Positions 1,871 to 53,189 of a stretch of 56,118 nucleotides of DNA are shown here, one piece after another. The position numbers were made by a program, and so were the translations under genes. This DNA comes from Nitrospirota bacterium (lineage in GTDB: Bacteria; Nitrospirota; Nitrospiria; SBBL01; SBBA01), in NCBI GenBank assembly GCA_038059935.1, contig JBBTIN010000005.1, forward strand, positions 1 through 56,118, written 5' to 3'. The notes beneath the pieces were generated by a model. That model saw only the letters and a program-made list of their open reading frames with translations. It was not told where the DNA came from and did not search any database. The number at the start of each line of letters is the position of its first letter. Position 1 is the stretch's first letter.

Positions 1871-1915
1871 ACCGCGACCAACGGGAGTGGTCAGTTCGCT
1901 CCCGCCCGTGGCGGG
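1871..1915 (+). repeat. Stop-abutting hairpin element (GACCAACGGGA module plus CCCGCC-GGCGGG hairpin)
   Basis: ACCGC-GACCAACGGGA-GTGGT followed by CCCGCCCGTGGCGGG, ending at the stop codon at 1916. Confidence 0.75.
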
Positions 1916-2380
1916 TCAGATGCGGAGAACGGTGGTTTTGAGAATGGCAAGCGTAAGAGACCGAGGGAAATCCAAAGAGGAACGGGTTGGAGTAAAATCG
2001 GCGGGGATCATTGTGAATCGAATCGGGGCGGCTGTTGAATGGAAAAGGCGGTGGGCTATTTTAGAGACCTGCGTGGAGACAATTTGCGGCTTAAGTGGAG
2101 AGAGATGGAACGCATGATCGGCTGTGTCAGATGCTGCAGGAGAAGCATTGCCAAGTGCAAGGGGTACGACCCCTGCGAGGGTCGAATTGGCATGCGCATC
2201 GTGATGGCCGGGATGATGCAGAACCAAGTCGAGATGGTTCTGGTCATGAATCATGATAACTTGATGCGGGTGCAACAGGACAGCCAAAAAAGGAAGACCC
2301 AGCACGCTTCCGCAAAGAAAGGCAAAGAGAGACACCACGCTAATTGATTTTTGCAGCAGGGTTGTTTTTCTTTGCGACAT
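1916..2380 (-). CDS. His-rich membrane-anchored hypothetical protein upstream of czcC
   Basis: TM segment, then HPHQVIMIHDQNHLDLVLHHPGHHDAH, C-terminus LKTTVLRI. Start at 2380 or 2398. Confidence 0.6.
   Translation of the reverse strand: MSQRKTTLLQKSISVVSLFAFLCGSVLGLPFLAVLLHPHQVIMIHDQNHLDLVLHHPGHHDAHANSTLAGVVPLALGNASPAASDTADHAFHLSPLKPQIVSTQVSKIAHRLFHSTAAPIRFTMIPADFTPTRSSLDFPRSLTLAILKTTVLRI
2161..2179 (+). repeat. RCG-loop micro-hairpin, in-frame within the His-rich ORF
   Basis: GGGGT-ACG-ACCCC-TGCGAG; encodes LAGVVP on the minus strand. Confidence 0.7.
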
Positions 2381-2479
2381 AATAAAATTCCAGATCAACC
2401 CCTTATGGATGGGTCATCCTCTGCCAAAAACAGGAGTGATGTCAAGAAACGCATTGGCCATATCCATGACATTCAAAAC

Positions 2480-2848
2480 TCATCGGGAGAAATGATCCTC
2501 CAGATTTTCGTTCAACGTAAAAATAATCATTCGTTCCCCTGTCTTCGTGCTGATATCGGTATGGAGGCTAATCACCTTGAGGCCGGTGACATTCTCAATC
2601 GCTTCTTTGATCAACGCTTTGCCCTGCTCTAACAAATTGGAACGTATCTTTTTAATCAGGCTAATTCCCTCCGAATTTTTGGCCAGTTGTTGCTCTGCCG
2701 GAGTCAGCACCCCTTTCAGCCGAACCAAAACCATATCTTCAATGACGAATGCCTTTGTTTCTTGTGGGCCTCGGCCCATGTAATCCTTTTCAAACTGGAT
2801 TAAGGCATTACTGATCTCTGCCTCTATTTGCCCTTTTGTTCTTCTCAT
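2480..2848 (-). CDS. DUF2294 / MpsC-family protein
   Basis: TKGQIEAEISNALIQFEKDYMGRGP...LKGVLTPAEQQL...ISLHTDISTKTGERMIIF matches the DUF2294 signature. Confidence 0.85.
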   Translation of the reverse strand: MRRTKGQIEAEISNALIQFEKDYMGRGPQETKAFVIEDMVLVRLKGVLTPAEQQLAKNSEGISLIKKIRSNLLEQGKALIKEAIENVTGLKVISLHTDISTKTGERMIIFTLNENLEDHFSR

Positions 2849-2858
2849 TGAATTGTCC

Positions 2859-5479: not shown

Positions 5480-5480
5480 T

Positions 5481-8105: not shown

Positions 8106-8143
8106 AATATTACACAATGCAACAATGTAACGGGTTATCCTAA

Positions 8144-8181
8144 TCGCGACCAACGGGAGCGACAATCTGCGCCCTCCGCGC
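8144..8181 (+). repeat. Stop-abutting GACCAACGGGA hairpin element
   Basis: TCGC-GACCAACGGGA-GCGA directly downstream of the folE stop. Confidence 0.75.
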
Positions 8182-8736
8182 CTAGGAGAGGAGGTTGAGG
8201 AATTCCGCGCGGGTTTTGGAGTCGGTTCTAAAGGAGCCCAGCATTGTGGAGGTAATCATCTCTCCGTTTTGTTTTTCCACACCGCGCATCATCATGCAAA
8301 GATGTTTTGCCTCGATCACCACGCCCACCCCATAGGGCGCGATTTTTTCCATAATGGCCTCGGCGATTTGACTGGTCAATTGTTCTTGAATCTGCAGACG
8401 TCGGCAGAAAACTTCGACCAACCGAGGCAGTTTGGAAAGCCCCACCACCTTTTTTTTAGGCAAATAGCCAATATGACATTTTCCAAAAAAAGGCAAAAGG
8501 TGATGCTCGCACATGGAGTAAAAATCAATGTTTCTGACAATCACCATCTCTTCATGGGGCGCGTCAAAAAAAGCGTTGTTCAAAACGGTATCTATATCTT
8601 GATGATATCCCTGTGTGAGAAATTGCAAAGACCGCTCCACGCGATCGGGTGTTCCTAAAAGCCCTTCGCGCGTGGGGTCTTCTCCGATTGCAACAAGCAG
8701 TTTGTGAACGATGTCTTTTATAGATTGATTTTTCAT
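8182..8736 (-). CDS. folE: GTP cyclohydrolase I
   Basis: [50 protein letters not shown]. Confidence 0.96.
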
Positions 8737-10884: not shown

Positions 10885-10972
10885 CCCCTGCCCCCTTTTT
10901 TAAGGGGGAATAAGATTAAATGAATTTTAGAGAACCCATCCCCACCTAACCTCCCCTTGAAGGGGAGGGAGG
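10885..10972. repeat. C-rich/G-rich palindromic repeats
   Basis: CCCCCTGCCCCC-TTTTTTAA-GGGGG and CCCATCCCCACCTAACCTCCCC-TTGAA-GGGGAGGG; a similar unit occurs at about 41409-41437. Confidence 0.55.
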
Positions 10973-10987
10973 GAGAGGTAATCCTAA

Positions 10988-11045
10988 TCACGACCAACGG
11001 GGCAGCGTGCCCTGCGGGGAGTGACAATCCGCCCTCCGCGAGAAG
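10988..11045 (+). repeat. Stop-abutting GACCAAC element carrying an 18-nt micro-hairpin insert
   Basis: TCAC-GACCAAC-[GGGGCAGCGTGCCCTGCG]-GGGA-GTGA; otherwise similar to the 8133-8180 copy. Confidence 0.75.
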
Positions 11046-16104: not shown

Positions 16105-16197
16105 GGAGAGATGTCCGAGCGGCTGAAGGAGCACGACTGGAAATCGTGTAGACGGCCAAAATCTGTCTCGGGGGTTCAAATCCCCCTCTCTCCGCCA
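16105..16197 (+). tRNA. tRNA-Ser (GGA)
   Basis: GGAGAGA acceptor stem, anticodon arm CACGA-CTGGAAA-TCGTG, long variable arm, GGTTCAAATCC, encoded CCA. Confidence 0.95.
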
Positions 16198-16219
16198 ATT
16201 TTTAAAGTTGGAACTTTTT

Positions 16220-16293
16220 GCGTCTGTAGCTCAACTGGATAGAGCGCCGGCCTCCGAAGCCGTAGGTTATGGGTTCAAGTCCCGTCAGGCGCA
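16220..16293 (+). tRNA. tRNA-Arg (CCG)
   Basis: GCGTCTG/CAGGCGC acceptor, TAGCTCAACTGGATAGAGC D arm, anticodon loop CTCCGAA, GGTTCAAGTCC; CCA not encoded. Confidence 0.93.
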
Positions 16294-37514: not shown

Positions 37515-37530
37515 TCACTCCCTATTTGCC

Positions 37531-39204: not shown

Positions 39205-39247
39205 CGTCTTTTACTATGCGAGATATAAAAAACGCGCTCTCTTTTGT

Positions 39248-39354
39248 GGAGAGGCCAGATGATCCCGCGGCACCTAGAAGGGCTTACGGACCGTTGCTTC
39301 CTTCCGGATCTGGCGGGGTTAATAAGTTTCTACTGCACAGGGTCCAGCCCCTCC
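39248..39354 (-). ncRNA. ffs: Small signal recognition particle RNA (4.5S)
   Basis: Minus strand CCAGATCCGGAAGGAAGCAACGG helix-8 motif in a long hairpin; canonical position upstream of dnaX. Confidence 0.92.
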
Positions 39355-39382
39355 AAAAAAGAGAGTGCACAAACCGACGGGA

Positions 39383-39411
39383 ATAGTATCATGCTTCCAA
39401 TCGGGAATCAA
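39383..39411 (-). promoter_or_regulatory. sigma70 promoter of ffs
   Basis: Minus strand TTGATT-N17-TACTAT. Confidence 0.6.
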
Positions 39412-39426
39412 CGCATCTTCCAGACG

Positions 39427-40233: not shown

Positions 40234-40242
40234 GATAGGCTC

Positions 40243-41166
40243 CTATGTTTCATATCGCACCCTCGGATCGGTGATGACATACAAAATATCTACTAGCAAA
40301 TTCACCAGAAGATAGGTGAATGCAACGGCAAGAACACACCCTTGTACCAATGGATAATCGCGGCTAAAAATCGCTTGGATCATTAAACGCCCCAGTCCCG
40401 GCCAGGAAAAAATGGTCTCCGTAATAATAGACCCCGTCAATAACGCGCCAAATTGCAATCCTAAAACGGTGATCAATGGAATGAGGCTGTTGCGAAAAAG
40501 ATGTTTGAAAATCACAACGCGCTCGGGGAGTCCTTTTGCCCGTGCGGTGACCATAAATGTTTTTTCCATGGTATCGAGCACGGATGCACGTGTCATTCTA
40601 ATTAAGATTGCGGCCATACCGATTCCCAGCGTCAACGCTGGCAAGATGAGAGAGAGAACCCCTTCTTTGCCAGAAACGGGAAGCCAATTTAATTGAAGCG
40701 AAAACAGGATAATCAGAAGTGGCCCAAGACAAAAATTTGGCATGGAGACACCAAAAAGAGAACCAAGAAGAATCGTCTGATCCCCGATGCCTCCTTTCTT
40801 GAGTCCGGAAAAAATACCGAGCGGAATGGCCAAGGCAATTGCAATGATCATTGCAGAAATGGCAAGCAACAGTGTCGCCGGATAGCGGGACAAGAGAATA
40901 TCCATCACCGGCTTCTTCATGCTGAACGACTCGCCCAAATCGCCCGTTGCCAAACGCAATATAAAATGACCGTATTGTTTGAGGATCGGCTCGTCCAGAT
41001 GAAGCGATTCTCGGAGGTGGACGCGATCTGCGACGCCTGCCGTCTCTCCAAGCATGAGGTCAATGGGGTCCCCCGGAATCAGGTGAATCAAGAAAAACAC
41101 AGCGGTGACCACACCCAGCGCAACGGGCAAAATCCAGAGCAGTCTTAAAAAAAGATAGCGTGCCAT
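40243..41166 (-). CDS. Peptide/nickel ABC transporter permease (DppB/NikB-like)
   Basis: IPGDP, GDLGES, TARAKGL, ETIFSWPGLG, RDYP, DPRV. Confidence 0.92.
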   Translation of the reverse strand: MARYLFLRLLWILPVALGVVTAVFFLIHLIPGDPIDLMLGETAGVADRVHLRESLHLDEPILKQYGHFILRLATGDLGESFSMKKPVMDILLSRYPATLLLAISAMIIAIALAIPLGIFSGLKKGGIGDQTILLGSLFGVSMPNFCLGPLLIILFSLQLNWLPVSGKEGVLSLILPALTLGIGMAAILIRMTRASVLDTMEKTFMVTARAKGLPERVVIFKHLFRNSLIPLITVLGLQFGALLTGSIITETIFSWPGLGRLMIQAIFSRDYPLVQGCVLAVAFTYLLVNLLVDILYVITDPRVRYET

Positions 41167-41167
41167 C

Positions 41168-41392
41168 TCATTCCCCGATCATCGCAATAAAACGTCGTCC
41201 AAACCAAATAACGACTCCGACAAGAATAACGACATAAAAAACAAAGACGCCAAAAAGAACAGGCCGCGCACTAAAAAGAGAATAGCCCACAGAAATGGTA
41301 ACGGCCGCAACGATGAGACACCCGATTGCAAAAACCAAGAAAATCGGCTTCTGCCATTTTGCAAAAAATAGTTTCGTAAAGTCTTTCGGCAA
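41168..41392 (-). CDS. Small two-TM membrane protein
   Basis: 74 aa, two hydrophobic helices, AAGGA RBS, ends 1 nt before the permease start. Confidence 0.55.
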   Translation of the reverse strand: MPKDFTKLFFAKWQKPIFLVFAIGCLIVAAVTISVGYSLFSARPVLFGVFVFYVVILVGVVIWFGRRFIAMIGE

Positions 41393-41447
41393 TGCTATTT
41401 CCTTAACACCCCCCTACCCCCCTTGCTCGGGGGGAATGAAGCGTGTT

Positions 41448-42509
41448 TCATTTTTCCAGTGTCCAGTATTGATAGGCCAAATGAGGATTCCACATGGCCC
41501 CCGTCGCCGACATCACGGCATCCACACCCAAATCAAAAAACTGCCGAACATGATCCGCCGTCATCACGCCGCCCACTCCGATAATCGAAAAGTCGTATTT
41601 TTCTTTTTGCCTTAATTCAATAAGTCGGCTCGCCTGTTCCATCGCACAGCCCCGAATCGCCGATCCGCAGACACCGGAGCGAAGCCGTCCCGGCAACGCG
41701 GGATTCCCATGGGTATCCACGACTTCAAACGAGAGCGTATTGAGTCCTGAAATGGCATTGACGTAAGGGGCATTTGCCTTGGCAACTTGAGATAATTTTC
41801 CCTTGTCTCTTAAATAGCCTATCTTCATGATAAGGGGTCCCGTTCCAATCGCCTGTCTCACTGCCTTTGAAATGTTTGAAGAAAAAACAGGATCGGCATA
41901 AATGGACCCCTCACCCGTCTCGACATTCGGACAAGAAAGATTAATCTCAATGATATCGGCACCTGCTTCTACGGCAAGCGATGCCCCTTTTGCGTAGTCG
42001 GCCACCAAATCGCCCTGTTCAGGCGTGCCAGAGACGCTCACAATCAATACCTGTCCCGGCTTGATCCCGCGGCGAGCAATTGCAACATCCTCCTGCCAAA
42101 TTTTCGGATCTCGCGATGGCATTCCAAAGGAATTGGTAATGCTAATATCCTCTAAAGCAGATGGCGTCTTTGGTGTTGCGATGAGCCGTTTTCCAAAATC
42201 GTTTTCTAGCAGTAGCCCTGCAGGTTCCAAAAAAACACAGTTGGGGGTCGGATGACTTGGAGTCGCAACGGTTCGGACGGTTTTATAAACCAGCAGATCA
42301 AATCCCAACGCGGCGTAATCTAAAATCCATTTGGAATTTAACAGTGGCCCCGCCGGGATTCCCAAACGAGAGTGCACGGAAAATCCCAGAAAGTTTTGTT
42401 TTGGATGTGAGTCGGAAAAGGGAGCGACAGTAGGTAATGTCGTTATGAGAGAAGGCCCCTTTTGGTAGTTGTCCTCATAAGAGGCCGTGATGTTGTATGT
42501 CCCGTGCAT
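41448..42509 (-). CDS. Dihydroorotate dehydrogenase-like FMN TIM-barrel oxidoreductase
   Basis: PAGP, YKTV, NSFG, EINLSCPN, NTL, GVGGV. Confidence 0.8.
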   Translation of the reverse strand: MHGTYNITASYEDNYQKGPSLITTLPTVAPFSDSHPKQNFLGFSVHSRLGIPAGPLLNSKWILDYAALGFDLLVYKTVRTVATPSHPTPNCVFLEPAGLLLENDFGKRLIATPKTPSALEDISITNSFGMPSRDPKIWQEDVAIARRGIKPGQVLIVSVSGTPEQGDLVADYAKGASLAVEAGADIIEINLSCPNVETGEGSIYADPVFSSNISKAVRQAIGTGPLIMKIGYLRDKGKLSQVAKANAPYVNAISGLNTLSFEVVDTHGNPALPGRLRSGVCGSAIRGCAMEQASRLIELRQKEKYDFSIIGVGGVMTADHVRQFFDLGVDAVMSATGAMWNPHLAYQYWTLEK

Positions 42510-42535
42510 TAGATTTTGGTTTGTGTGTCTTCAAA

Positions 42536-42751
42536 TCAAACGAGTTTCTTTAAGGTTTCAACCGTCAGGTCTGCTTTTTTTAGGATATTATTAAGAGTCC
42601 CTTTTTTCACTTCTTTATGGTTAGGGACAATGACCGTGATACTTTTTTCCAGATGATGCAAGAAGATGTGGCTTCCTTTCTGATGATCCATCACAAAGCC
42701 GATGCGATGGAGGGCTTTAACAACCTGCCTTCCTGAAAATGTTTTGCTCAA
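42536..42751 (-). CDS. hicA: HicA-family mRNA interferase toxin
   Basis: [26 protein letters not shown]. Confidence 0.9.
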
Positions 42752-42963
42752 ATAGCGACCTCGACTTCTCTGATGGTTAGGTTCGGTTTTGTTTTAATCT
42801 CATTTAATTTTTCAAGTCCCTCAATGTAGCACACGATGGCTTCCCTTGCATTTTCAAGTGCTTCTTCCATCGTGTCCCCTTGCGTAAAACAGCCATCGAG
42901 TGCCGGAACAACCACGTTAAAGCCTCCCTCATCCGCTTTATCCAAAACGATATTAAACTTCAT
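42748..42963 (-). CDS. hicB: HicB-family antitoxin, short form
   Basis: [32 protein letters not shown]; GGAG RBS. Confidence 0.9.
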
Positions 42964-43029
42964 TTTCTCTCCTACTTTTATTTTGTTGTACAGACTCACC
43001 CTCTGACATAACAAAAAAGGATGTCTTTA

Positions 43030-43112
43030 TCGCGGCCAACGGGGCAAGCACCTTGCGAGGAGCAAGCATAGACTGCGAAAGCAGTCGTCCCGCAGGGGGG
43101 GTGCTACCCCCC
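43030..43112 (+). repeat. Composite stop-abutting element
   Basis: GGCCAAC-[GGGGCAAGCACCTTGCG]-AGGA, ATAGACTGCGAAAGCAGTCGT, and a G-rich hairpin spanning the reductase stop. Confidence 0.7.
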
Positions 43113-45560
43113 TTTCTCAATGACCAGTTCGTAATGACTATCGGGACGCCTTACCAACTCTAAAACTTTATGGCCCTCTGCTTTCACCGATCGGGGAACA
43201 TTATCTTTCGGCGCGCCATCATCAATAATCACCTCTAAAATTTCACCGGTCTCCATCTCTTCTAATTGCAGTTTTGTCTTTACAAAATTCATTGGACAAG
43301 CGACACCCGATAAGTCCAGTCGAACATCTACTTTCCTACCTGAAACATTAGAGACGGCGGACGCATTTGATTCCTGCGGCACTTTGTCCTCCTTCTTTCT
43401 CAATTTCATACTCGCGTCCATTTGGTCATACGCGGCTTTGCATTCGGCGATCACAAGACCGGCCAACGCAAGCGATGATAAAACGGCATCGGAAGAAACA
43501 TCAAACACCGTCCATTGTCCGAGACCTGCGGTCAGTTTTTCAAATTGCTCCGAGACAATGCCTTGCTCGACTAATTTATGTTGAAACTCTTTTAAGATTT
43601 CCCCTTCCAGTTGAGAATCAACCCCAAACGGAATCAACAACGCGCGGCAAGAAAGCAGGATCGCATTTTTCATTCGTTCAATAGCCGACTCCATGTTGCC
43701 ACGACGCACTTCCAATTGAGCCATTTCAAGCGACTGCGCACTGGTTCGAAGATAATTTTCAATGAGATCAATCACCGTTCCCGCACACTCGCCTGGCCCT
43801 AAATCATCTAAATGAAAATCGCTCTCGGCATTGTAATCATGGTAGGACGAAGGAGAGTCCGCGGGCAGCGGGAGCGCCGTCAACACGATCAGTTGATCCG
43901 AGATCACATCGGCCCCATAACGCTTTACAAACGGATTAAACAATTCTCCATCAAGACGATTTTCGCTATAGATTTGGACAATCTTTGTGACCGCTTGCGG
44001 AATATTTTTTGCAGGCAATTTAATTTTCGGCTTCCCCAGTGTCGGAGAATCGGCATTGACCCCGCCGCCTAAATGCAGTTGATAATGCGGTGCCAATTTT
44101 CCATGCACCTTTTTGGCCACACCGTGAAAACCAATCCCTGCAATATGATGATGCGCACAGGAGTTTGGACAGCCAGAGATACGAATACGAAGACCGCTAT
44201 CCGCGATTGCATCGGCTTCATTTTTCCCAAATTCATTCACAATCGCGTCGCCCAATCCCATTGAAGAAGTCAATGCCAACTGGCAAGTGTCGGCACCGGG
44301 ACAGGCAATCACATCAATGGCCCTTTGCGCGCCAGGATGGGCAAGGGAGATTTGTCGCAACGCTTCATAAAGACTCGGCAGCGATTCTTGCAAGATGCCA
44401 TGCAGAATAAAATTTTGCTGATGCGTCGCGCGAATCTCGTGAGGGACAGCGTGTCCTGCGGGCAGAAACCGATCTACAATATCGGCTAATCCTAAAAGTT
44501 CGGGCGCGGCAATATCTCCGAGCGTGAGTCTAATTTCAACCGATACCCGTTCTCCGGGCATAAAAAGAACATTGGTTCGCATCCATTTTTCATAGTCGGT
44601 CTCATCAGCTGATGCGATTCTTTTTTGCGCTGAATCGCTTGGTAATACAAAAAGAGGTTTTGTTGCAGGCTCCGGAAGATCGGGGTAGACGTTCCCCATC
44701 TCCTTTAAGAGCGCGATTTCTTTGGCGACCTCTGCCTTAAACTTTTCCAATCCCCATCGCTCCAGCACAAATTTCATTCGTGCCTTGCTACGGGTCTTTC
44801 GATCTCCATTGGCGTCAAATATTTTTAAGATGGCCTCACAGGTTGGCAATACCTCTGAAAACGGCAAAAACTCCGAATACAGTTTTGCAAGCTTTGGACT
44901 GGAACCCAAGCCGCCTCCCACATAAACCTTAAACCCGTACGCCACGCTTCCATCCGCAGGGGACGTTCCCCCTTTAGGACGACTCTCTGCGATAAAACCG
45001 ATGTCGTGAATGGCTGCCATTGCGCATTCGCTCTTGCATCCTGAAAAGGAGATTTTGAATTTTCGAGGTAAATCGGCATTGATCGGATTTCTCAAAAGAT
45101 GATAGGCCACCTTTTCCGAGATCGGCGCGACATTAAACGTTTCTGTATGACAAGCACCGGCCAGATGACAGGCCGTCACATTGCGAACTGTATTGCCGCA
45201 GGCCTCTCGTGTTGTCAGCCCCACTTCTGCAAGTCGCGTAAGGATGGTCGTAATATGATCCAATTTTACGAAATGAAATTGGATGTCCTGTCGGGTTGTG
45301 ACATGACATTTTCCGGTGGAGTATTTCGTGACAACATCGGCAAGGGTTCGTAGTTTTTCGGCGTTTAAGAATCCAGATGGAATCTTAACGCGAACCATCT
45401 GAACGCCCTTTTGCCGTTGGCCGTAGATGCCTTGCTGCAGTCGAAATTTCTTGAATTTCTCTTCTGGGATTTCTTTGTTTTGAAGTCGTTTAACCTCGCG
45501 GCCAAACGCTTCAATTTCTTTGAGGACTTCTTCTGGGATTGTAACCATAGGGGGCATCAT
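43104..45560 (-). CDS. Siroheme nitrite/sulfite reductase fused to a helical (HEPN-like) domain and a C-terminal TusA/SirA domain
   Basis: GIYGQR, TTRQDIQ, CGNTVRN, LPRKFK, ACPGADTC, SGCPNSC; C-terminal LDLSGVACPMNFVKTKL. Confidence 0.88.
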   Translation of the reverse strand: MMPPMVTIPEEVLKEIEAFGREVKRLQNKEIPEEKFKKFRLQQGIYGQRQKGVQMVRVKIPSGFLNAEKLRTLADVVTKYSTGKCHVTTRQDIQFHFVKLDHITTILTRLAEVGLTTREACGNTVRNVTACHLAGACHTETFNVAPISEKVAYHLLRNPINADLPRKFKISFSGCKSECAMAAIHDIGFIAESRPKGGTSPADGSVAYGFKVYVGGGLGSSPKLAKLYSEFLPFSEVLPTCEAILKIFDANGDRKTRSKARMKFVLERWGLEKFKAEVAKEIALLKEMGNVYPDLPEPATKPLFVLPSDSAQKRIASADETDYEKWMRTNVLFMPGERVSVEIRLTLGDIAAPELLGLADIVDRFLPAGHAVPHEIRATHQQNFILHGILQESLPSLYEALRQISLAHPGAQRAIDVIACPGADTCQLALTSSMGLGDAIVNEFGKNEADAIADSGLRIRISGCPNSCAHHHIAGIGFHGVAKKVHGKLAPHYQLHLGGGVNADSPTLGKPKIKLPAKNIPQAVTKIVQIYSENRLDGELFNPFVKRYGADVISDQLIVLTALPLPADSPSSYHDYNAESDFHLDDLGPGECAGTVIDLIENYLRTSAQSLEMAQLEVRRGNMESAIERMKNAILLSCRALLIPFGVDSQLEGEILKEFQHKLVEQGIVSEQFEKLTAGLGQWTVFDVSSDAVLSSLALAGLVIAECKAAYDQMDASMKLRKKEDKVPQESNASAVSNVSGRKVDVRLDLSGVACPMNFVKTKLQLEEMETGEILEVIIDDGAPKDNVPRSVKAEGHKVLELVRRPDSHYELVIEKGG
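44444..44462 (+). repeat. RCG-loop micro-hairpin, in-frame within the reductase
   Basis: GGACA-GCG-TGTCC-TGCGGG; encodes PAGHAV. Confidence 0.7.
44953..44971 (-). repeat. RCG-loop micro-hairpin, in-frame within the reductase
   Basis: Minus strand GGGGA-ACG-TCCCC-TGCGGA; encodes GTSPAD. Confidence 0.7.
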
Positions 45561-45643
45561 ACCCCGCTATGATTTATACGGTCAATAGACTCATCCGGTT
45601 TCAGAGCGTGTAATCTGGGTTTTGAGGAAGGAGGGGCTGTTTT

Positions 45644-46225
45644 TCACTGGGAAAAGGCTGCGTAAATTCCCTTCAAATCATCGGGTGTATTGATATTTCT
45701 CAAGAGGGGCTCTTCTGTATCCGAGAGGGGAAGAAACGATGGCGTACTGTTTTGAATCGCACGACAAAGCGAACGCTCGCCCAGCAATAATTGTTTTTGG
45801 ATTTCAGGAAGCCAACATGCGGGATAGTATCCTGGAAGCGGGGTTAACATTGTCGAGACTGACCTCTGAAAAATGCAAGGACCAATGGATTCCGCCCTGA
45901 TCAATCGGCGCAAAAGAGCAGCGGTTAAAAACGGCTGATCACATGCGGTTACCATATAGCCATGCAGATCAATTTCGCTTTTAAGAAGTGTTGCAATGGC
46001 ATAAAGCGGCCCCATCCCGGGTGCTTCATCAGGCAGTGCGATTAATTGTGGCAGTGATGGAAGGTTGACGCCACGGCAATTCCCGATGATCACGATTTTT
46101 TCGCAAACTTCTAGGAGTGGTGCCATGACATGTGCAATCATGGGTCGTCCATCAGAAAGGAGAATCCCTTCCTTAGGCTGCCCCATTCTGGTACTCAATC
46201 CTCCGGATAATATTGCACCTGTCAT
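45644..46225 (-). CDS. mobA: Molybdenum cofactor guanylyltransferase
   Basis: ILSGGLSTRMGQPK, GPL, ACDQPF, NINTPDD. Confidence 0.9.
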   Translation of the reverse strand: MTGAILSGGLSTRMGQPKEGILLSDGRPMIAHVMAPLLEVCEKIVIIGNCRGVNLPSLPQLIALPDEAPGMGPLYAIATLLKSEIDLHGYMVTACDQPFLTAALLRRLIRAESIGPCIFQRSVSTMLTPLPGYYPACWLPEIQKQLLLGERSLCRAIQNSTPSFLPLSDTEEPLLRNINTPDDLKGIYAAFSQ

Positions 46226-46253
46226 CTCTATTCCTTTTTTACTTTTCTCTGTC

Positions 46254-46388
46254 TAGTGTCTGAACGGAAACCCTATTTTTTGTCATTTCGACCAAAGGGA
46301 GAAATCTGTCACCTCAATGTGATCAAGCCTCTAAGATTTCTCACTTCGTTCGAAATGACAGAGAAAGAACCTTTTCGTTCAGACACTA
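46254..46388. mobile_element. MITE-like element, same family as 300-445
   Basis: TAGTGTCTGAACGGAAA ... TTTTCGTTCAGACACTA around a TGTCATTTCGAC..CGAAATGACA core. Confidence 0.75.
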
Positions 46389-46429
46389 TCCAAGAAAGAA
46401 TCCAACTTACATAACCGTTCACCCCCGTA

Positions 46430-46494
46430 CCCTGACCAACGGGAAGGGGGATAGACTGCGACAGCAGTCGTCATCGAGCCCGCCCGTTGGCGGG
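46430..46494 (+). repeat. Stop-abutting three-module element
   Basis: CCCT-GACCAACGGGA-AGGG, ATAGACTGCGACAGCAGTCGT, CCCGCCCGTTGGCGGG, then the lolC/E stop. Confidence 0.78.
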
Positions 46495-47730
46495 CTATTC
46501 GTAGCGGAGGGCTTCGGCGGGGTCTAGTTTGGCTGCCTGCCATGATGGGTATAATGTTGCAAAAAAGGCGATCAGGAGTGCTGATACCGAGACGACAATC
46601 AGATCAAATGGAAGAATTGCAACTGGAAGATGGCTGATATAATAGACATCGGTTGGCAACTTATAAAACCGAACTAAAAGTGAACAGATTAAAAGTCCCA
46701 ACGGCAGACCCATGAGAACACCCACACCGCCGATCATGACCCCTTCAATCATAAAAACACGCATGATGGATTTTTGGCTGGCTCCCATTGCTTTTAATAT
46801 GGCGATCTCTCTTCCCTTTTCCAGTACCGTCATGGTCAAGGTTGAAACGATGTTAAATGAAGCGACCAGGATAATCAGTGTGAGGATAATGAACATCACA
46901 ATTTTTTCCAGTTTCAGCGCGGAGAAGAGCGAGCGATTCATCTTGAGCCAATCTTTCGCCTGATGTGGAAATCCGAGCACGGCTTCGATCTCATCGGCAA
47001 TCTCGGCCGCTGCGGAAATATCGGTAACCTTCACTTCAATTCCGCTGACATGCTGTTCAAAATTAAAAAATCGCTGCGCCTCCGGAATTGAGATATAAAC
47101 CAGTGCGGAATCGTATTCGTACATGCCGGAATCAAAAATCCCAACGATCGTAAATTTGCGAATTTTTGGCGTCATGCCGATCGAGCCGATTCCCGCTTGA
47201 TTTTCCAAGCCCGCCGGAGAGATCACGTTAATCGTGTCGCCTAAACCCACTGAAAGACGGGAGGAAAGCTCTACCCCCATCAACATACTGCTGGTCGCCA
47301 AATCCTCTATTTTCCCTTGAATCAGACTTTCGGCAATCTTGGTCACTTTGGCCTCTCGTTTTGGATCAATGCCGCGTAAGATCACCCCCACCGCACCGGC
47401 ACTGGAGGACAGCAAGACTTGTCTCATGATAAATGGGGTCGCGGCGACCACACGCTGATTTTGGGAGATGACTTCGATGAGCGGCTCCACATTCTCCAAT
47501 CCTTCGCGTGTTCGGTCATCCACAACAATATGAGAATTGATCCCCAAGATTTTATCGCGCAGTTCGTTTTTGAACCCAGTCATCACGGCCAGCGTCGCAA
47601 TCAGCGCGGCGACTCCTACTGTGACCCCCGCAATTGAAATGAACGTGGTTAGGGAAATTCCCTTTTGCCGTCGTTTTGCACGAAGATAGCGAATGCTGAT
47701 AAAAAATTCGAAAGGCAGATAGCGATTCAT
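46495..47730 (-). CDS. lolC: Lipoprotein-releasing ABC permease LolC/E
   Basis: RYLRAKR, GVTVGVAALI, VASFNI..L.MTV.EK.REIAILKAMGA, DVYYISHLP, PAEALRYE. Confidence 0.9.
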   Translation of the reverse strand: MNRYLPFEFFISIRYLRAKRRQKGISLTTFISIAGVTVGVAALIATLAVMTGFKNELRDKILGINSHIVVDDRTREGLENVEPLIEVISQNQRVVAATPFIMRQVLLSSSAGAVGVILRGIDPKREAKVTKIAESLIQGKIEDLATSSMLMGVELSSRLSVGLGDTINVISPAGLENQAGIGSIGMTPKIRKFTIVGIFDSGMYEYDSALVYISIPEAQRFFNFEQHVSGIEVKVTDISAAAEIADEIEAVLGFPHQAKDWLKMNRSLFSALKLEKIVMFIILTLIILVASFNIVSTLTMTVLEKGREIAILKAMGASQKSIMRVFMIEGVMIGGVGVLMGLPLGLLICSLLVRFYKLPTDVYYISHLPVAILPFDLIVVSVSALLIAFFATLYPSWQAAKLDPAEALRYE

Positions 47731-48401
47731 GAATAGTACCGATTCTTTCTTTTTCTAAATAAAAAAATGAGACTCATCCCTGCGACAAAGCCACCCACGT
47801 GTGCAAGAAAGGCAACCCCTCCAGCACCGCTTTGCGTCAAGGTCGCATTCAAAACTTGCATTAAAAACCAAAAACCCAAAACGACGACCGCCGGAAGCCA
47901 TGAGAAATTGATAAAAATAATAATGGGAATCAGGGTGAGGACACGCGCGCGCGGGAAGAGAACCAGATAGGCTCCTAACACGCCGGAGACCGCGCCGGAA
48001 GCGCCAATCATCGGGATACGTGAGGTCGGATCAAACCCTGCATGGGAAAAAACGGCAACGATTCCGCAGATGAGATAAAAGAAAATAAACCGGACTGGCC
48101 CCATGACGTCTTCAATATTATTTCCAAAAATCCAAAGATAGAGCATATTTCCGCCGAGGTGTAAAAAACCCGCATGAAGAAACATGGAGGCAAAAATAGA
48201 GGCAGAAGCGTCTGGAATGGAAACGGTTTGTTCAAAAGGGTGCATCAGATTAAATGGAATTGCGCCATAGGTAAAAATGAGTTGCTCGGAAGATTCCCCC
48301 AATGTGATCTGATAGTAAAACGCAAGCAGGTTTGCCACAATGAGACCGATGGTCACAAATGGGAACGAATGGGTCGGCAGATCATCTTTAAGTGGAATCA
48401 T
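47727..48401 (-). CDS. Rhomboid family intramembrane protease
   Basis: MIPLKDD, HLGGNMLYLWIFG, GASG, AHVGGF. Confidence 0.92.
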   Translation of the reverse strand: MIPLKDDLPTHSFPFVTIGLIVANLLAFYYQITLGESSEQLIFTYGAIPFNLMHPFEQTVSIPDASASIFASMFLHAGFLHLGGNMLYLWIFGNNIEDVMGPVRFIFFYLICGIVAVFSHAGFDPTSRIPMIGASGAVSGVLGAYLVLFPRARVLTLIPIIIFINFSWLPAVVVLGFWFLMQVLNATLTQSGAGGVAFLAHVGGFVAGMSLIFLFRKRKNRYYS

Positions 48402-48458
48402 CGTTAATTTACCAGCGGGGGACTCTAACACAATCACGCGTTCTTTTACGATAAAACT

Positions 48459-48487
48459 TTGACTTTTGTATATGTGGCAGATACAAT
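48459..48487 (+). promoter_or_regulatory. sigma70 promoter of tRNA-Asn
   Basis: TTGACT-N17-TACAAT, 12 nt before the tRNA. Confidence 0.7.
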
Positions 48488-48499
48488 AGCCCGACTTTT

Positions 48500-48575
48500 T
48501 CCCCAGTAGCTCAGTCGGCAGAGCGGACGGCTGTTAACCGTCATGTCGCTGGTTCGAATCCGGCCTGGGGAGCCA
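48500..48575 (+). tRNA. tRNA-Asn (GTT)
   Basis: TCCCCAG/CTGGGGA acceptor, GACGG-CTGTTAA-CCGTC anticodon arm, GGTTCGAATCC, encoded CCA. Confidence 0.95.
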
Positions 48576-48581
48576 ACTTCT

Positions 48582-50318
48582 ATGACCTTCTCCCAACTGG
48601 TTTCTACCTTTGAAAAAATCGAAGCAACATCAAAACGACTGGAGATGTTTGCCATTCTCTCCGATCTCTTCAAAGAAGCAGACACCAATGAAATCGCCCA
48701 AATCATCTATCTCCTGAAAGGCGAACTGCTGCCCGCTTTTCATGACATCAACATCGGCATGTCAGAAAAATATCTGCTCCGCACCATTGCCAACACAACA
48801 GGCATCGCTTCCGAACCCTTATTAAAACAACACCAAATACTTGGTGATATTGGAAAGACCGCTGCACAATTTATCTTAAAAAAAGAATGCAGAAACCCAA
48901 CCATTTCTGAAGTCTATTCCGCCATCTATCAAATGGCCATGATGAATGGCGAAGGCAGCGTGGATCAAAAGATTGATGCGTTATCGCATCTGTTCTCCTG
49001 CCTCTCTCCTGTGGAGGCAAAATATGTTGCGCGATTTGTTGCGGGACAACTTCGACTCGGTTCCGGAGATGCCACCATTTTAGAGGCACTCGCTTTATCG
49101 CAAGGCAGTCGCACTTTTCGCCCAGCACTCGATCGCGCCTATAACTTGATTTCCGATTTAGGCCTGCTCGCTAAAATCTACCGTCAAGAAGGAGAGGCCG
49201 GCGTGCTGGCCATCGCGGTGCGATGCGGCTATCCAATTCGTTCCGCGCTGTGCGAGCGATTACCCTCTGCTGAAGAGATCATCGAAAAGATCGGTCGCTG
49301 TTCGGTTGAAATCAAATATGACGGATTTCGCTGTCAGGCACATAAAAAAGAAAATGAAGTAATTCTCTTCTCGCGTAATCAGGAACGCACTACTTTAATG
49401 TTTCCCGAAATTGTGGAAGCCATACAGAGCGTTTTTCATGGCCATGACATTATTTTGGAAGGAGAGGCTTTGGCTGTGAATGAGACCACAGGAGAAGCGT
49501 TCCCTTTTCAGGTCACGATGCAACGCAAACGAAAGCATGATATTGCTCTTTTGGCCAAAACGGTTCCTCTCAAATTCTTTCTGTTTGATCTGCTTTACTT
49601 AGATGGAGAGGACTATACACAATATCCATACCATGCGCGGCGGAATAAATTAATTTCACTGCTACCAAAACATCCTGTCCTTGAAATATCGGAGGCCATT
49701 GAAACAGAGGATCCGAACGCGGTTTCTCTGTTTTTTAATGATGTCGTAGAGCGCGGATATGAGGGGATTGTGGCGAAACGATTGGAGTCGCTCTATACGG
49801 CGGGCTCCAGAAATTTTAATTGGATTAAATTAAAACGCAGTTACAAAGGAGAGATGACCGATACGCTGGACCTTTGTATTGTCGGTTATTTTTTTGGAAA
49901 GGGAGCCCGCACGAAATTTGGAATTGGCACCATTTTAGTCGCGGCGTATGATAAAGAGGAGGCTCGCTTTAAGACCCTCTCAAAAATTGGAACCGGGTTT
50001 ACAGAGGCCGAGTTAATCGCGCTCAAGGGACTGCTTGATCCGATAAGCATTCCTGAAAAGCCCAAAACACTCGACGCGAAGATCGTTCCCGACGTTTGGG
50101 TCGTTCCAAAATTCGTCGTCACGGTGACAGCGGATGAAATGACGCGATCTCGAAGTCATACAGCCAATCAAGACGCCGATGGCGTGGGGTTATCGCTTCG
50201 ATTTCCGCGTGTCAAAGGATTTATTCGCAATGACAAGGGGCATGAAGATTCGACGACGACAGCGGAAATCGCCACGCTGTTTTTGCAGCAAAAACGAATT
50301 CAACTAAAAGAGACTTAA
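48582..50318 (+). CDS. ATP-dependent DNA ligase (full-length, with N-terminal DNA-binding domain)
   Basis: EIKYDGFR motif I, FSRN, EGE, FDLLY, EGIVAK, WIKLK, SLRFPR. Confidence 0.92.
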   Translation: MTFSQLVSTFEKIEATSKRLEMFAILSDLFKEADTNEIAQIIYLLKGELLPAFHDINIGMSEKYLLRTIANTTGIASEPLLKQHQILGDIGKTAAQFILKKECRNPTISEVYSAIYQMAMMNGEGSVDQKIDALSHLFSCLSPVEAKYVARFVAGQLRLGSGDATILEALALSQGSRTFRPALDRAYNLISDLGLLAKIYRQEGEAGVLAIAVRCGYPIRSALCERLPSAEEIIEKIGRCSVEIKYDGFRCQAHKKENEVILFSRNQERTTLMFPEIVEAIQSVFHGHDIILEGEALAVNETTGEAFPFQVTMQRKRKHDIALLAKTVPLKFFLFDLLYLDGEDYTQYPYHARRNKLISLLPKHPVLEISEAIETEDPNAVSLFFNDVVERGYEGIVAKRLESLYTAGSRNFNWIKLKRSYKGEMTDTLDLCIVGYFFGKGARTKFGIGTILVAAYDKEEARFKTLSKIGTGFTEAELIALKGLLDPISIPEKPKTLDAKIVPDVWVVPKFVVTVTADEMTRSRSHTANQDADGVGLSLRFPRVKGFIRNDKGHEDSTTTAEIATLFLQQKRIQLKET

Positions 50319-50782
50319 GTCGCAGGAGGACTGACGGCGATGGTCTCTCCGACGCGAATCGTTCCTACTGTGACCACAAGCGCCAGATAGCCGATTCGGC
50401 CAACCGTTTCTTTTTCTAAACGGGCATCAATCGCGCCCAATACAAAACAAGGTTTTCTTGGCTCGACCAACTCCAGCACGACTCCGCCAGAAAAAGAAAG
50501 GCGTGTCTTCGGTGCGAGGGTCTGAACGTGAAGATCACGCACCGTAATATTTTCTCCCATCGCACCGGGGAACACAGGGTATCCTTCGGCAATAAGCGTC
50601 TCTAAAATCTCAAAATCAAACAGAGAGATCGCGCGGGTCGGCTTGAGATGGTTTGCATGTTCATGCCCATCCCCTTCTATTCCGGTTTGTGTAACAAACG
50701 CAATATCAATCGGCCGTTTTGGAATTCCCCCCGGCGAAATATTCAAGGAGATAACCTGTGGGTCTTTTTTTTCTTGATCCAT
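50315..50782 (-). CDS. MOSC domain protein
   Basis: GGIPK, GIEGDGH, RAISL, PGAMGEN, PRKPC. Confidence 0.88.
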   Translation of the reverse strand: MDQEKKDPQVISLNISPGGIPKRPIDIAFVTQTGIEGDGHEHANHLKPTRAISLFDFEILETLIAEGYPVFPGAMGENITVRDLHVQTLAPKTRLSFSGGVVLELVEPRKPCFVLGAIDARLEKETVGRIGYLALVVTVGTIRVGETIAVSPPAT

Positions 50783-50860
50783 CTGTAAAGAAACCCTATT
50801 TTAAAACGAAACATCATCCATGCAAAATCGTTTGGATAATAAAACAAACCGTTTTCTATT

Positions 50861-52555
50861 TCAAGGTTTTCTCTCAAACCCATCAATAAAAGAGACCAGA
50901 AAAAGAATAGATGAAATGGCAGCGACGCCACCGAGTAATATTCCAATGGGGGTCAGCCTTACGAAAGATTCGTTTTGATCAAGGTAAAAAATCGCCGCGC
51001 CGGCCACCAACCCCAGTAATGACCGATAGGCGAGATTGTAGATTTTAAGCAAGGTCGTCTCAACCCCCTTGGAATGCATCTCTGTTTTGACTCCACCGCT
51101 GTGACCCAATTCCAAGACCGATTGCAAAGCGGCTGGAAGCGCGAGTAAAGCCGAAAACACCGCCTTCCCTTTTACAAACAGTTCTTTTATGCCTTGTTTT
51201 TTGTAGGCAAACTTTTTGGCGTAGGGCTGCGCCAGATCAATAATATTCGCGTCCGGATCGAGTTGAGAACAAATTCCGTTTAACATTCCCACTGCCCGTC
51301 CCGCTAAAATAAAAATGTTGGGCACCTGCAGTGCAGAATAAATCGTAAAAATCGTTTTGAAATCATCTGAAATATCTTTAATGGTAATCGTTTTGAAGGC
51401 ACGAGGAGAAATACTCCGATACCGATCCATGAAAAATAAAACGACGCGTTCAATCTCGCTTTCGCCCTGCCCACCCTCTTTTGCAAGAAACCCGACCTCA
51501 ACCAGACCTCGCGCAATCGCGGGAATATCGCGATTGATGATCGCCATAATCATTCTTCTTAGTCCTTTGTCCGTCTGATCATCAATCTCTTGCATCAGGC
51601 CAAAATCAACATAGACCAATCGAAATTGGCCGGCTTGATTTTCTATCGGTTGCACAAAAAGATTCCCCGGATGCGGATCGCCATGAAAAAACTGAAAGAG
51701 CAGAATCTGCTTCATATACGACTCGACCAACAGTCGCGCGACCGCTTGGGTTTCAATCCCTGCCGTCCTGATTTCGTCAAAGCAATTTATTTTTATTCCG
51801 CCCACTTTTGTGAGCGTGAGAACGCGTTCGGTTGTATATTCCCAAACCACGCGAGGCACGAGAATGCGATCATCTCCTAAAAACTGTTTGTGAAACTTCT
51901 CGGCATTTTTGGCCTCCGCAATATAATTGAGTTCCATCTGTACCATTCGATCAAACTCTCGCATCAGAATATCAAATCGAATATGGGCAAAAATCTTCTG
52001 GAGCAGATACACAATAATTCGAATTGCGCGAAGATCGGTACGCACAATTGCCTCAATATGGGGATACTGAATCTTCACCGCCACATCAAGCGTTCCGTCT
52101 TCAAGGGGGCTGTTCAAAACCGCTTGATGGACTTGGCCAAACGACGCCGATGCCAATGGGATCGCGTTAAAAGAACGAAAAAGTGCTTCGGGTGTGTCGC
52201 CTAACTCGTCAATGATTCTTTCTCGAATTTCAGAAAAAGGAGCCGGCGGCACGTGGTCTTGCAGCGATGAAAGGGTTTTGGTATAGGCCTTGGGCAGAAG
52301 ATCAACCCGCGCACTCATGAATTGGCCAACCTTAATCATCAGCCCCTTTAAGGAAAGCGTGGTGTTTAGAAAGCGTTCGGCATTTTCAAGATGAAGCCGT
52401 TCCATCCATTGGACTTTTCTCCGGCTAGAGAGAACGGGAGCGACAAGATACAAAAGAAAATAGCCGATTAAAATGCGAAAAGATATCCAGAGAATTCGAG
52501 TCGCTCTTCCCCATAAGGGTGGGGGCGTGTCCGATGAAGAAGATTGTGTATTCAT
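50861..52555 (-). CDS. AarF/ABC1/UbiB family kinase
   Basis: IKVGQ, LQD, ASASFGQVH, VAVKIQYP, FHGDPHPGN, DFG. Confidence 0.92.
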   Translation of the reverse strand: MNTQSSSSDTPPPLWGRATRILWISFRILIGYFLLYLVAPVLSSRRKVQWMERLHLENAERFLNTTLSLKGLMIKVGQFMSARVDLLPKAYTKTLSSLQDHVPPAPFSEIRERIIDELGDTPEALFRSFNAIPLASASFGQVHQAVLNSPLEDGTLDVAVKIQYPHIEAIVRTDLRAIRIIVYLLQKIFAHIRFDILMREFDRMVQMELNYIAEAKNAEKFHKQFLGDDRILVPRVVWEYTTERVLTLTKVGGIKINCFDEIRTAGIETQAVARLLVESYMKQILLFQFFHGDPHPGNLFVQPIENQAGQFRLVYVDFGLMQEIDDQTDKGLRRMIMAIINRDIPAIARGLVEVGFLAKEGGQGESEIERVVLFFMDRYRSISPRAFKTITIKDISDDFKTIFTIYSALQVPNIFILAGRAVGMLNGICSQLDPDANIIDLAQPYAKKFAYKKQGIKELFVKGKAVFSALLALPAALQSVLELGHSGGVKTEMHSKGVETTLLKIYNLAYRSLLGLVAGAAIFYLDQNESFVRLTPIGILLGGVAAISSILFLVSFIDGFERKP

Positions 52556-52556
52556 A

Positions 52557-53111
52557 TCAAGAAGGCAGGTTCTTAAGGTCATCCGTCGCATCGGCTTTCT
52601 GCCCTCGCATATCCCGCATCATCGCCAATAACAGCATTGTGACGCCCATCGTAATCGCAGAATCGGCCACATTAAACGCAGGCCAATGATGCTCCCCAAT
52701 ATAAAAATCGAGAAAATCAATCACCTCGCCTAATCGCACCCGATCAATTAAATTCCCAATCGCTCCCCCCAGCAAAAGAGAAAGCGCGATCATCTGCCAG
52801 TAATCATCACTTGGGGTTTGATAAACCATCACCAACAAGAAAGAGAGGGCACAAAGCGAAACCACAGAAAAAAATAAGGCGCGAAAAAAACGGCTTTGAT
52901 CCGCAAAAAGGCCAAAGGCCGCACCGGGATTTCGAATATACGTTAATGAGAAAAGGTCGGGAATCACCGGCAGCGACTCATGCAGGGCAAAGGCGCGATC
53001 AATGTAGATTTTACTGACTTGATCTAAAACGACAATCCCTGTTGCAATCAGGGTGAGGATGATCCATTTAGATAATATTAAAGCAACGATTTTAGAAAGG
53101 GAGCGGGACAT
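52557..53111 (-). CDS. lspA: Lipoprotein signal peptidase II
   Basis: DQVSK, NPGAAFG, GAIGNLIDR, VIDF, FNVAD; follows ileS. Start approximate. Confidence 0.94.
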   Translation of the reverse strand: MSRSLSKIVALILSKWIILTLIATGIVVLDQVSKIYIDRAFALHESLPVIPDLFSLTYIRNPGAAFGLFADQSRFFRALFFSVVSLCALSFLLVMVYQTPSDDYWQMIALSLLLGGAIGNLIDRVRLGEVIDFLDFYIGEHHWPAFNVADSAITMGVTMLLLAMMRDMRGQKADATDDLKNLPS

Positions 53112-53140
53112 TAATAAAGATACCAATACCTACACAGCCC

Positions 53141-53189
53141 ACCACGACCAACGGAAGTGGTCACAACTCGCCTCCGCCCGTCGGCGGAA
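53141..53189 (+). repeat. GACCAACGG element overlapping the ileS 3' end
   Basis: ACCAC-GACCAACGGAA-GTGGT and TCCGCC-CGTC-GGCGGA. Confidence 0.72.

Follow-up and report, generated by a model that had tools for sequence, protein, structure and literature searches.

The window analysed here, a 56,118-nucleotide stretch of Nitrospirota DNA (contig JBBTIN010000005.1, contig C5 of its assembly), carries a similar short hairpin close to the stop codons of eight genes, which raises the question of whether these copies are a structured regulatory RNA, a strand-specific DNA or antisense RNA signal, or a repeat that has been spread by insertion. The window belongs to genome G000, an assembly of 1,364,001 bases in 63 contigs, rated 69% complete, with a GC content of 47% and a coding fraction of ~92%, and groundwater metagenome runs contain its DNA. 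It was compared with three congeners (G001, G002, and G003), whose flanking genes are 66–84% identical to those of the window, and with a 93% complete genome of a sister genus in the same family (G004). The hairpin, HP1, has a variable 5-bp stem around a core, GACCAACGGGA, sometimes with an extra A. We refer to the strand carrying this core as the GA strand; it is the + strand for all eight window copies. HP1 was found to be the most conserved module of a lineage-specific, modular, short non-coding repeat, not a stand-alone motif, and this repeat family has very probably been spread by insertion rather than being a dedicated regulatory RNA motif. The preliminary description of this DNA had found a motif that is real, and had missed its place as a single module within a mosaic repeat family whose insertions are polymorphic.

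In the window, the core is present exactly on the + strand at 1876, 8148, 27309, and 46434, with one mismatch at 10992 and 53146, and with two mismatches at 37131 and 43034. Allowing up to two mismatches, the window has 30 core matches compared with 13.98 ± 3.27 after shuffling, and 0 of 100 shuffles reached 30. Across the 1.36 Mb of G000, the exact 11-mer occurs 63 times and its reversed control once. Among these 63 exact cores, 51 are flanked by at least four of five stem pairs, two lie within a different repeat, and 10 are others; at up to one mismatch, 139 matches were found. The pattern GACCAACGGRA was counted 80 times in G000, 129 in G004, 24 in G005, 21 in G001, 9 in G002, and 5 in G003, while the remaining 31 of the 37 genomes of the order had 0–13 matches, against 0–9 for controls. 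Among these 37 genomes, expansion of the HP1 element is confined to one family, f1. A scan of species-representative genomes for the pattern returned four loci, and the module was genuine only in L008, a Nitrospirota metagenome-assembled genome; two Peribacteria matches and one Syntrophobacter match look like chance, with ~1.6 expected by our own arithmetic. Rfam covariance models placed nothing over the elements, both in the window (at gathering thresholds and at E ≤ 1) and in seven G004 loci (at E ≤ 1), in line with the preliminary description, which did not recognise a named motif. Literature searches with the 11-mer and its complement gave no paper on bacterial repeats, judging by titles and abstracts. 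Passages of PMC12306157 outside its supplements tabulate three named Nitrospirota genomes and hold no motif resembling HP1.

Covariation was evaluated in an alignment of 41 rows taken from the window and its relatives. Changes on both sides of a stem pair were observed in 54 cells, compared with 24.7 ± 3.1 in shuffled alignments, and 0 of 500 shuffles reached 54. Five of the seven HP1 pairs vary on both sides. Paired cells made up 89.9% of the alignment, a percentage inflated by pre-selection of the rows for at least four of five pairs, against 28.6–55.4% with the pairing partner slid, and the covariation score was 0.460 against 0.039–0.113. Since the copies are related and the arms are palindromic as DNA, this supports a hairpin and leaves its RNA or DNA form undecided. 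The preliminary description had proposed just such a hairpin, with a covarying outer stem and an invariant asymmetric loop, and this model holds up. The outer stems that it listed flank each core as described, the CT-AAC-AG double change at 37131 is present, and all eight + strand copies exist near the stops of minus-strand genes, with 4–59 nt between the core end and the stop.

The GA strand of G000 carries the modules in the order T-rich lead, HP1, optional HP2, HP3, and reverse-complemented stop codon. The lead often reads ...TGTAAC... followed by TTTTAC or TTTCAC. The HP2 segment consists of GGATAGA, then GACTGC-GNA-GCAGTC, then TCGTYCTCGC, and HP3 is one of several GC-rich hairpins (e.g., CTCCGCCCGTCGGCGGA, AGGCGGCCGTGCCGCC, and CCCACCGCGTAGGTGG), sometimes in tandem. 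HP2 was found in 31 of the 87 structured G000 copies, and in 12 the core is interrupted in its 3' half by a nested 17–18-nt mini-hairpin; elsewhere, a related mini-hairpin is inserted after GACC and points the opposite way. An HP3 type is rarely seen unless HP1 stands upstream, as it does for 20 of 25, 11 of 14, and 13 of 16 copies of three types. A second core within 90 nt on the same strand was seen for only 3 of 80 cores, and these are arranged in tandem, not inverted. Outside G000, HP2 matched only four times, in G001 and G003, and not at all in G002 or G005.

The sister genus G004 has 110 cores, and its element is mostly a full-length form of ~150 nt. On the GA strand, this form reads TTA followed by GACTCTCTGTTGGTGACATCTACGTTTTTTGCGTAGATAATTT (the hairpin module M0), GTGTAACGACATCGGTAGGCC, HP1 (CAGACC/GGGCTC), CGTTCGC, HP3, and TTAG. 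M0 was found 119 times in G004 at up to two mismatches, compared with 2 matches for the control, and 3 times in G000. No autonomous copy, with a gene between M0 and HP1, was observed: HP1 follows M0 in all three G000 copies, and an HP1-like core follows in 24 of the 24 G004 M0 copies inspected. That inspection covered 20 regions taken from the 119 M0 matches for having no exact HP1 listed beside them. At four G004 loci (L108, L109, L117, and L120), the M1 spacer is replaced by an ~80-nt AT-rich module of short tandem units (GAATCAAGAATGAAGAAT... TTCTTAATTCGTAATTCATA...).

Placement relative to genes was found to be consistent across the genome. In G000, 63 of 79 copies lie outside open reading frames (ORFs) of at least 100 aa. 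Of these intergenic copies, 41 lie in co-directional pairs with the GA strand antisense to both neighbours and 6 with it sense; 10 lie between convergent genes and 5 between divergent genes. An opposite-strand ORF of at least 100 codons stops just downstream of 68 of 87 copies (62 of 86 structured copies in a recount), so the placement after stops first described for the window applies to the genome at large. The distances from core end to reverse-complemented stop, which are 29, 23, 43, 32, 49, 59, 50, and 4 nt for window copies 1–8, cluster at 4–5 nt, at 29–32 nt (HP1 and HP3), and at 46–50 nt (HP1, HP2, and HP3). In the 4–5 nt class the stop is the TCA directly after HP1, so that the ORF reads through HP3. 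The stop is mostly 0–1 nt from the final base of HP3 or within its loop. Stops beside G000 elements are TAG in 29 cases, TAA in 19, and TGA in 14, compared with 390 TAA, 298 TAG, and 258 TGA genome-wide. In the 36 boundary cases that we counted, G follows YTA on the GA strand in about 20, which makes YTAR enriched at the junction.

Similar boundaries were observed in G004, where 26 of 44 copies abut a stop; another count gave 27 of 54, where a mirrored control gave 8 of 54. TTA forms the left flank of 27 of 33 copies and the right flank of 14 of 23, 11 of these being TTAG, and tandem copies have one TTAG in common. For 4 of 33 copies, a gene on the sense strand has the left TTAG or TTAA as its stop, and six copies instead precede the start of a GA-strand gene. 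We inferred the direction of replication for each contig from third-position GC skew (GC3), with the replication term separated from the coding term. On determinate contigs, element-bearing genes were co-oriented with replication in 26 cases and head-on in 11, the same proportion as for all genes (281:131), so polarity follows the gene and not the replication strand, as far as this crude inference goes. The earlier question of whether orientation follows transcription or the replication strand is thus answered in favour of genes (41:6). A Chi-like or KOPS-like (FtsK-orienting polar sequence) replication-polarised word was dropped as a candidate, given an orientation without replication-strand bias.

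Comparison of orthologous sites carries the case for insertion. In all three congeners (G001, G002, and G003), ybaB and recR are directly adjacent or overlapping (0–5 nt apart) and the element is absent, and G000 has about 190 nt of extra DNA between them, including an element that ends exactly at the conserved stop position. Likewise, ileS and lspA overlap in G001 without an element, and the G000 pair is separated by one; the C-terminus of IleS is ...CCEAVPPTGGGEL in G000 versus ...CCEAVASAA in G001, and the N-terminus of LspA also differs. Downstream of the reductase gene, G000 has HP1 (with a nested insert), HP2, and HP3, G001 has HP1 and HP3, and plain hairpins take their place in G002 and G003. 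At the thiolase site (ACAGC/GCTGT) and at the site of the chlorite-dismutase-like gene (cld; TCAC/GTGA), G001 carries orthologous HP1 copies that have identical stems but are followed by different HP3s, and the cld-site HP1 of G001 is without the nested insert of G000. The cld site of G002 has a hairpin, CGACCC-AAC-GGGTCG, with Watson-Crick pairs at the G.A positions. Presence and absence at orthologous sites argue that the copies are insertions rather than inherited regulatory sites, and the comparisons show gain, loss, and turnover of modules, unlike what a conserved regulatory site would look like. Over 33500–53499, contigs X1–X3 show depth peaks in repeat-bearing bins, contig ends beside repeats, and no joint that cleanly skips an element. 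Two other candidates were dropped: a recoding signal like the selenocysteine or pyrrolysine insertion sequence (SECIS/PYLIS), because stop positions match those of orthologues, and integron attC sites, because the genes are housekeeping genes and form no array.

The alternative that survives best, and which we still consider unlikely, is a selected cis-acting element of mRNA 3' ends (a GC hairpin at the stop, then stem-UCCCGUUGGUC-stem), serving as a non-canonical, factor-dependent terminator, a barrier to 3' exonucleases, or a site for an RNA-binding protein, with repetition reflecting recruitment to many genes. The fixed orientation relative to genes (41:6, and 62 of 86 at stops) and the start of HP3 0–1 nt past the stop would be expected of it; yet convergent pairs are not over-represented, at 10 of 63 intergenic copies. 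Plain hairpins stand directly after the same stops in species without HP1, and the thiolase and cld copies of HP1 are well conserved between G000 and G001, whereas other sites are polymorphic between species and the set of modules varies at a single site. An unrelated repeat containing GACCAAAGGGA (family 2, described below) has the same polarity, with 16 antisense and 4 sense among 20 co-directional contexts. Copies lie within gene pairs whose translation is coupled in relatives (ybaB–recR and ileS–lspA), where termination would silence the downstream gene. On the mRNA strand, GCGAGAACGA-type linkers come after HP3 and A-rich sequence after HP1, no U tract follows any hairpin, and the core gives U.C and C.U mismatches. 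On the GA strand, a T-rich run precedes HP1 and no terminator-like U tract follows HP3. The GC-rich hairpin with U tract that defines an intrinsic (Rho-independent) terminator was therefore found on neither strand.

A second alternative, which we regard as improbable, holds that the GA strand itself is functional, either as an antisense small RNA convergent with the gene or as folded single-stranded DNA with tandem sheared G.A pairs. The preliminary description had favoured such a form, on the view that the G.A pairs and the G.T wobble at 1871 form only on the plus strand. In HP1 stems, G.T outnumbers A.C on the GA strand by 19:6 over 75 non-independent copies (10:3 over pairs 1–4), a modest bias that speaks for this view; no such asymmetry was observed in HP3 (16:13). 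DNA folding parameters favour the GA strand by about 0.5 kcal/mol, in 68 of 73 G000 copies and 28 of 32 G004 copies, but RNA parameters give nearly equal energies (−5.88 kcal/mol for the GA strand versus −5.71), with the GA strand better in 30 of 73. On the GA strand HP2 has a GC-GNA-GC loop, a type that makes exceptionally stable mini-hairpins in DNA. Overall, the case for folding on the GA strand alone is weak.

Promoter-like sites on the GA strand were seen mainly in the sister genus. The G004 full-length form carries GTGACA-17-GATAAT on this strand, with 10 of 12 consensus matches at the best site, in L079. A sigma-70-like site lies upstream in 16 of 44 G004 copies, compared with 3 of 44 on the opposite strand, and M0 is at 119 copies there; in G000 only 1 of 74 copies has the site on the GA strand and 8 of 74 have it on the other strand, with M0 in only 3 copies. 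The GATAAT box doubles as the 3' arm of a hairpin, which makes its conservation ambiguous. The lack of a U tract after HP3 and a polarity that tracks genes rather than replication (26:11 versus 281:131) also speak against this view. The proposed single-stranded DNA or antisense RNA form is not supported; an antisense RNA is not supported for the window and remains a lead for G004. On the insertion reading, the tandem G.A pairs would be a property of a recognition hairpin and would not point to a separate antisense RNA. A double-stranded DNA site for a nucleoid, recombination, or uptake protein (like the DNA uptake and uptake signal sequences, DUS/USS) within terminator-like palindromes is very improbable: the invariant 11-nt word is at high copy in one lineage only, yet it occupies the unpaired middle of a hairpin, the covarying arms of which a duplex site would not need, its copies belong to longer repeated modules with defined ends, and its density of about 1 per 17–22 kb is far below that of uptake sequences.

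Set against known repeats, the HP1 repeat resembles the repetitive extragenic palindromic (REP) sequences and bacterial interspersed mosaic elements (BIMEs), known from Enterobacteria and Pseudomonas, more than a new RNA regulator. PMC3733652 describes REP-type repeats as found mostly downstream of ORFs, where the adjoining genes are unidirectional or convergent, and the GTAG/CGTC type is defined as a 20–40-bp palindrome with an unpaired GTAG or CGTC tag at one end; part of PMC12306157 places REPs often within 15 nt of stop codons. As far as these passages describe them, the likeness lies in short hairpin repeats at high copy, extragenic and near stops, that form mosaics of hairpin types and linkers. 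G000 fits the high-copy, extragenic pattern downstream of ORFs, with 63 exact cores, 63 of 79 copies outside ORFs, and 62 of 86 at stops. Unlike REPs, HP1 has 5' flanks such as YTTTAC or TTTCAC without a GTAG or CGTC tag, and its conserved part is the 11-nt asymmetric centre; HP2, with an ATAG-like 5' tag and a CGTY 3' tag, bears only a loose resemblance to a REP. HP1 copies are also single and in one orientation, in contrast to the two inverted REPs of a REPIN (REP doublet forming a hairpin), and no gene for a REP-associated tyrosine transposase (RAYT) was found flanked by HP1 copies in G000, G001, G003, or G004. RAYT-like genes are present in G001, G003, and G004 (in G004, ORF 1444–2394 of L001), at 73 bits against the NF047646 cut-off of 80. 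Neither a cognate tnpA nor a cognate tnpB was found next to any of the copies.

Other systems offer partial parallels. Miniature elements of the IS200/IS605 family, such as the palindrome-associated transposable elements (PATEs), have subterminal hairpins, no terminal inverted repeats, and one-orientation insertion at a specific tetranucleotide; the family makes no target duplication, and its orientation is coupled to the lagging-strand template. The HP1 repeat is like them in that the full-length alignment has no terminal inverted repeat, with HP0/HP1 at one end, HP3 at the other, and TTA(G) flanks. It differs in showing no lagging-strand bias in our crude comparison (26:11 versus 281:131) and in having TTAG at both flanks, possibly a target duplication. 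A miniature inverted-repeat transposable element (MITE) of the DDE type would have terminal inverted repeats and a target-site duplication; the HP1 family lacks the former, although its TTAG flanks could be a duplication. Small dispersed repeats (SDRs) of Nostoc-type cyanobacteria are very small hairpin units (about 17–27 nt) nested in other repeats, much as mini-hairpins lie within the HP1 loop after GACC or GGG; they belong to another phylum and have other sequences, and the HP1 mini-units ride on a larger mosaic element. Correia elements, neisserial intergenic mosaic elements (NIMEs), and the BOX elements of Streptococcus are modular non-coding repeats of ~100–150 nt that are co-transcribed with their neighbours, some with promoter-like boxes, a feature also carried by the G004 full-length form (GTGACA-17-GATAAT). 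They have terminal inverted repeats or a fixed boxA-B-C order and do not abut stop codons. Because it fails the tag, dimer, and RAYT definitions of REPs and shows no lagging-strand coupling, the HP1 repeat is filed here as a mosaic intergenic insertion element.

For the mechanism as a whole, we lean towards a REP/BIME-like miniature insertion element that targets YTAR or stop-codon sites. The repeat has very probably multiplied by insertion in one family of uncultured groundwater Nitrospirota. Insertion would be orientation-specific at an asymmetric TTAG/YTAR target, supplied by stop codons (C-TAA and C-TAG), and purifying selection would clear insertions elsewhere in a genome that is ~92% coding. 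The loop of HP1, invariant on a stem that varies yet always pairs, may be the recognition site of a trans-acting enzyme, since strand-specific recognition of a hairpin would explain an invariant loop on variable stems. Such an enzyme would most plausibly act on folded single strands, e.g., an HUH/Y1-type transposase. Once inserted, the element would be transcribed within the 3' untranslated region (UTR) of the upstream gene or within intercistronic RNA, where its hairpins may incidentally buffer 3'-end decay, by analogy with REPs.

Several observations weigh against this interpretation. At two sites orthologous between G000 and G001 (thiolase and cld), HP1 is more strongly conserved than the sequence around it, which would also fit a selected function. 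No clean empty site was seen at strain level, the relatives compared having flanking genes 66–84% identical. In G000, at 69% completeness, no match to Y1_Tnp (PF01797) was found, and neither HP1 nor similar hairpins nor 12-mers shared with the element were seen in the flanks of the RAYT-like genes of G001, G003, and G004. CTAG is palindromic, so the target alone cannot set orientation in G000, and selection or a strand-specific step has to be assumed. Judging from the flanking sequences, TTAG at both ends may be a target-site duplication or target mimicry, which fit alike. The gene calls are our own crude longest-ORF calls, and replication direction could not be determined on the contigs of 43 of the 87 copies.

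A more elaborate version of the insertion scenario is conceivable, and we put it forward only as a speculative and rather unlikely one. The 11-nt centre of HP1 would be the recognition and nicking site of a single-strand-specific, HUH-like enzyme, insertion would occur in one orientation exactly at the YTAR of stop codons, and the nicked loop would be a hot spot for capture of the 17–18-nt mini-hairpins, making this a novel type of stop-codon-homing miniature element. In the sister genus, an outward sigma-70-type promoter would drive convergent antisense transcripts at ~100 gene ends.

The eight window copies show how the modules combine; all are on the + strand. Copy 1 (1871–1915) has HP1 as ACCGC-GACCAACGGGA-GTGGT (1871–1891), a linker, and HP3 (CCCGCCCGTGGCGGG), and it adjoins the TCA (TGA) stop of the minus-strand ORF 1916–2398, whose 160 aa matched no family in a Pfam search. 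Copy 2 (8143–8191) has an ATCGC/GCGA(C) stem followed by HP3 (CCCTCC...GGAGAGG), and the CTA (TAG) stop of folE (Pfam GTP cyclohydrolase I) lies at 8182–8184, within the HP3 loop. The cld-site copy 3 (10987–11045; TCAC/GTGA) adjoins the stop of its gene (Pfam chlorite dismutase), and a nested 17–18-nt mini-hairpin (about GCAGCGTGCCCTGCGGGG) interrupts its core in the 3' half. In copy 4 (27304–27351), the ACAGC/GCTGT stem with an extra A is followed by HP3 (GGGGCACGCTGCCCC), adjoining the CTA stop of a thiolase gene (Pfam thiolase). The compensatory core GACTAACAGGA characterises copy 5 (37126–37190), which has HP2 at 37151–37165 and an HP3 adjoining the CTA stop of ybaB (Pfam YbaB). Copy 6 (43029–43112) has a degenerate HP1 (GGCCAACGGGG) with a nested mini-hairpin, HP2 at 43071–43086, and HP3 (GGGGGGG-TGCTA-CCCCCC), whose loop includes the stop of an NiR/SiR-type reductase gene (Pfam NiR/SiR). 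Copy 7 (46429–46494) combines a CCCT/AGGG stem, HP2 (46454–46469), and HP3 (CCCGCCCGTTGGCGGG) beside the CTA stop of an FtsX/MacB-type permease gene (Pfam FtsX/MacB). In copy 8 (53141–53188), HP1 is ACCAC-GACCAACGGAA-GTGGT and HP3 lies at 53172–53188; the ileS ORF (Pfam class I tRNA synthetase) runs through HP3 and ends at the TCA immediately after HP1. The gene identities first assigned to these sites were recovered for seven of the eight ORFs, which have the implied Pfam families, ORF 1916–2398 being the exception.

Other repeats and features were observed in the same DNA. Family 2 is an unrelated classical MITE of ~135–150 nt, with 29 copies in G000, a long internal hairpin, and 17-nt terminal inverted repeats (TAGTGYCTGAACGGAAA ... 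TTTCGTTCAGRCACTA). Its window copies lie at 300–445, about 34010–34125, and 46254–46388 (+), and it contains TTTC-GACCAAAGGGA-GAAA, an HP1 look-alike; matches were also found in G002 and G003. A perfect palindrome beside copy 5, GGGAAGGGCACGTTGCAACGTGCCCTTCCC (about 37058–37087), looks like an inverted dimer of the nested mini-hairpin. At 10935–10968 there is a small hairpin repeat of the type CCTCCCCTT-GAAG-GGGAGG / CCCCTCTTTG..CAAAGAGGGG, also present at L060, L039, and L012 and in G001 and G003; it has 97–100% identity to congener loci and sits after stops in species without HP1. The final 50 nt of the contig (56069–56118) match five places in G001 at 90–100% identity and contain no tRNA; the assembly probably broke here at a further repeat. 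At 33585–33943 (+), a sub-threshold match to the cspA thermoregulator model, with 53.3 bits against a gathering threshold of 78 (E = 9e-11) and a family 2 repeat after it, suggests a cold-shock gene with a long 5' UTR. The window also has one signal recognition particle (SRP) RNA gene and three tRNA genes, with coordinates at 39250–39349 (−), 16105–16293 (+), and 48500–48572 (+). In G004, matches of miRNA models to L091 (2090–2194) are spurious and sub-threshold, the ~100-nt near-perfect hairpin there being unrelated to HP1.

Covariation within a repeat can pass for a structured regulatory RNA, and on its own it reveals no new RNA class. If the insertion reading is true, such repeats disrupt metagenome assemblies and can mislead the annotation of gene ends. 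About 5% of genes in these groundwater Nitrospirota, whose genomes are small, would carry a foreign hairpin cassette directly on the stop codon, and some copies would have rewritten a C-terminus (IleS) or split translationally coupled pairs (ybaB–recR and ileS–lspA). The family would then be a compact natural system for studying how hairpin mini-elements choose their target and orientation without an obvious transposase.

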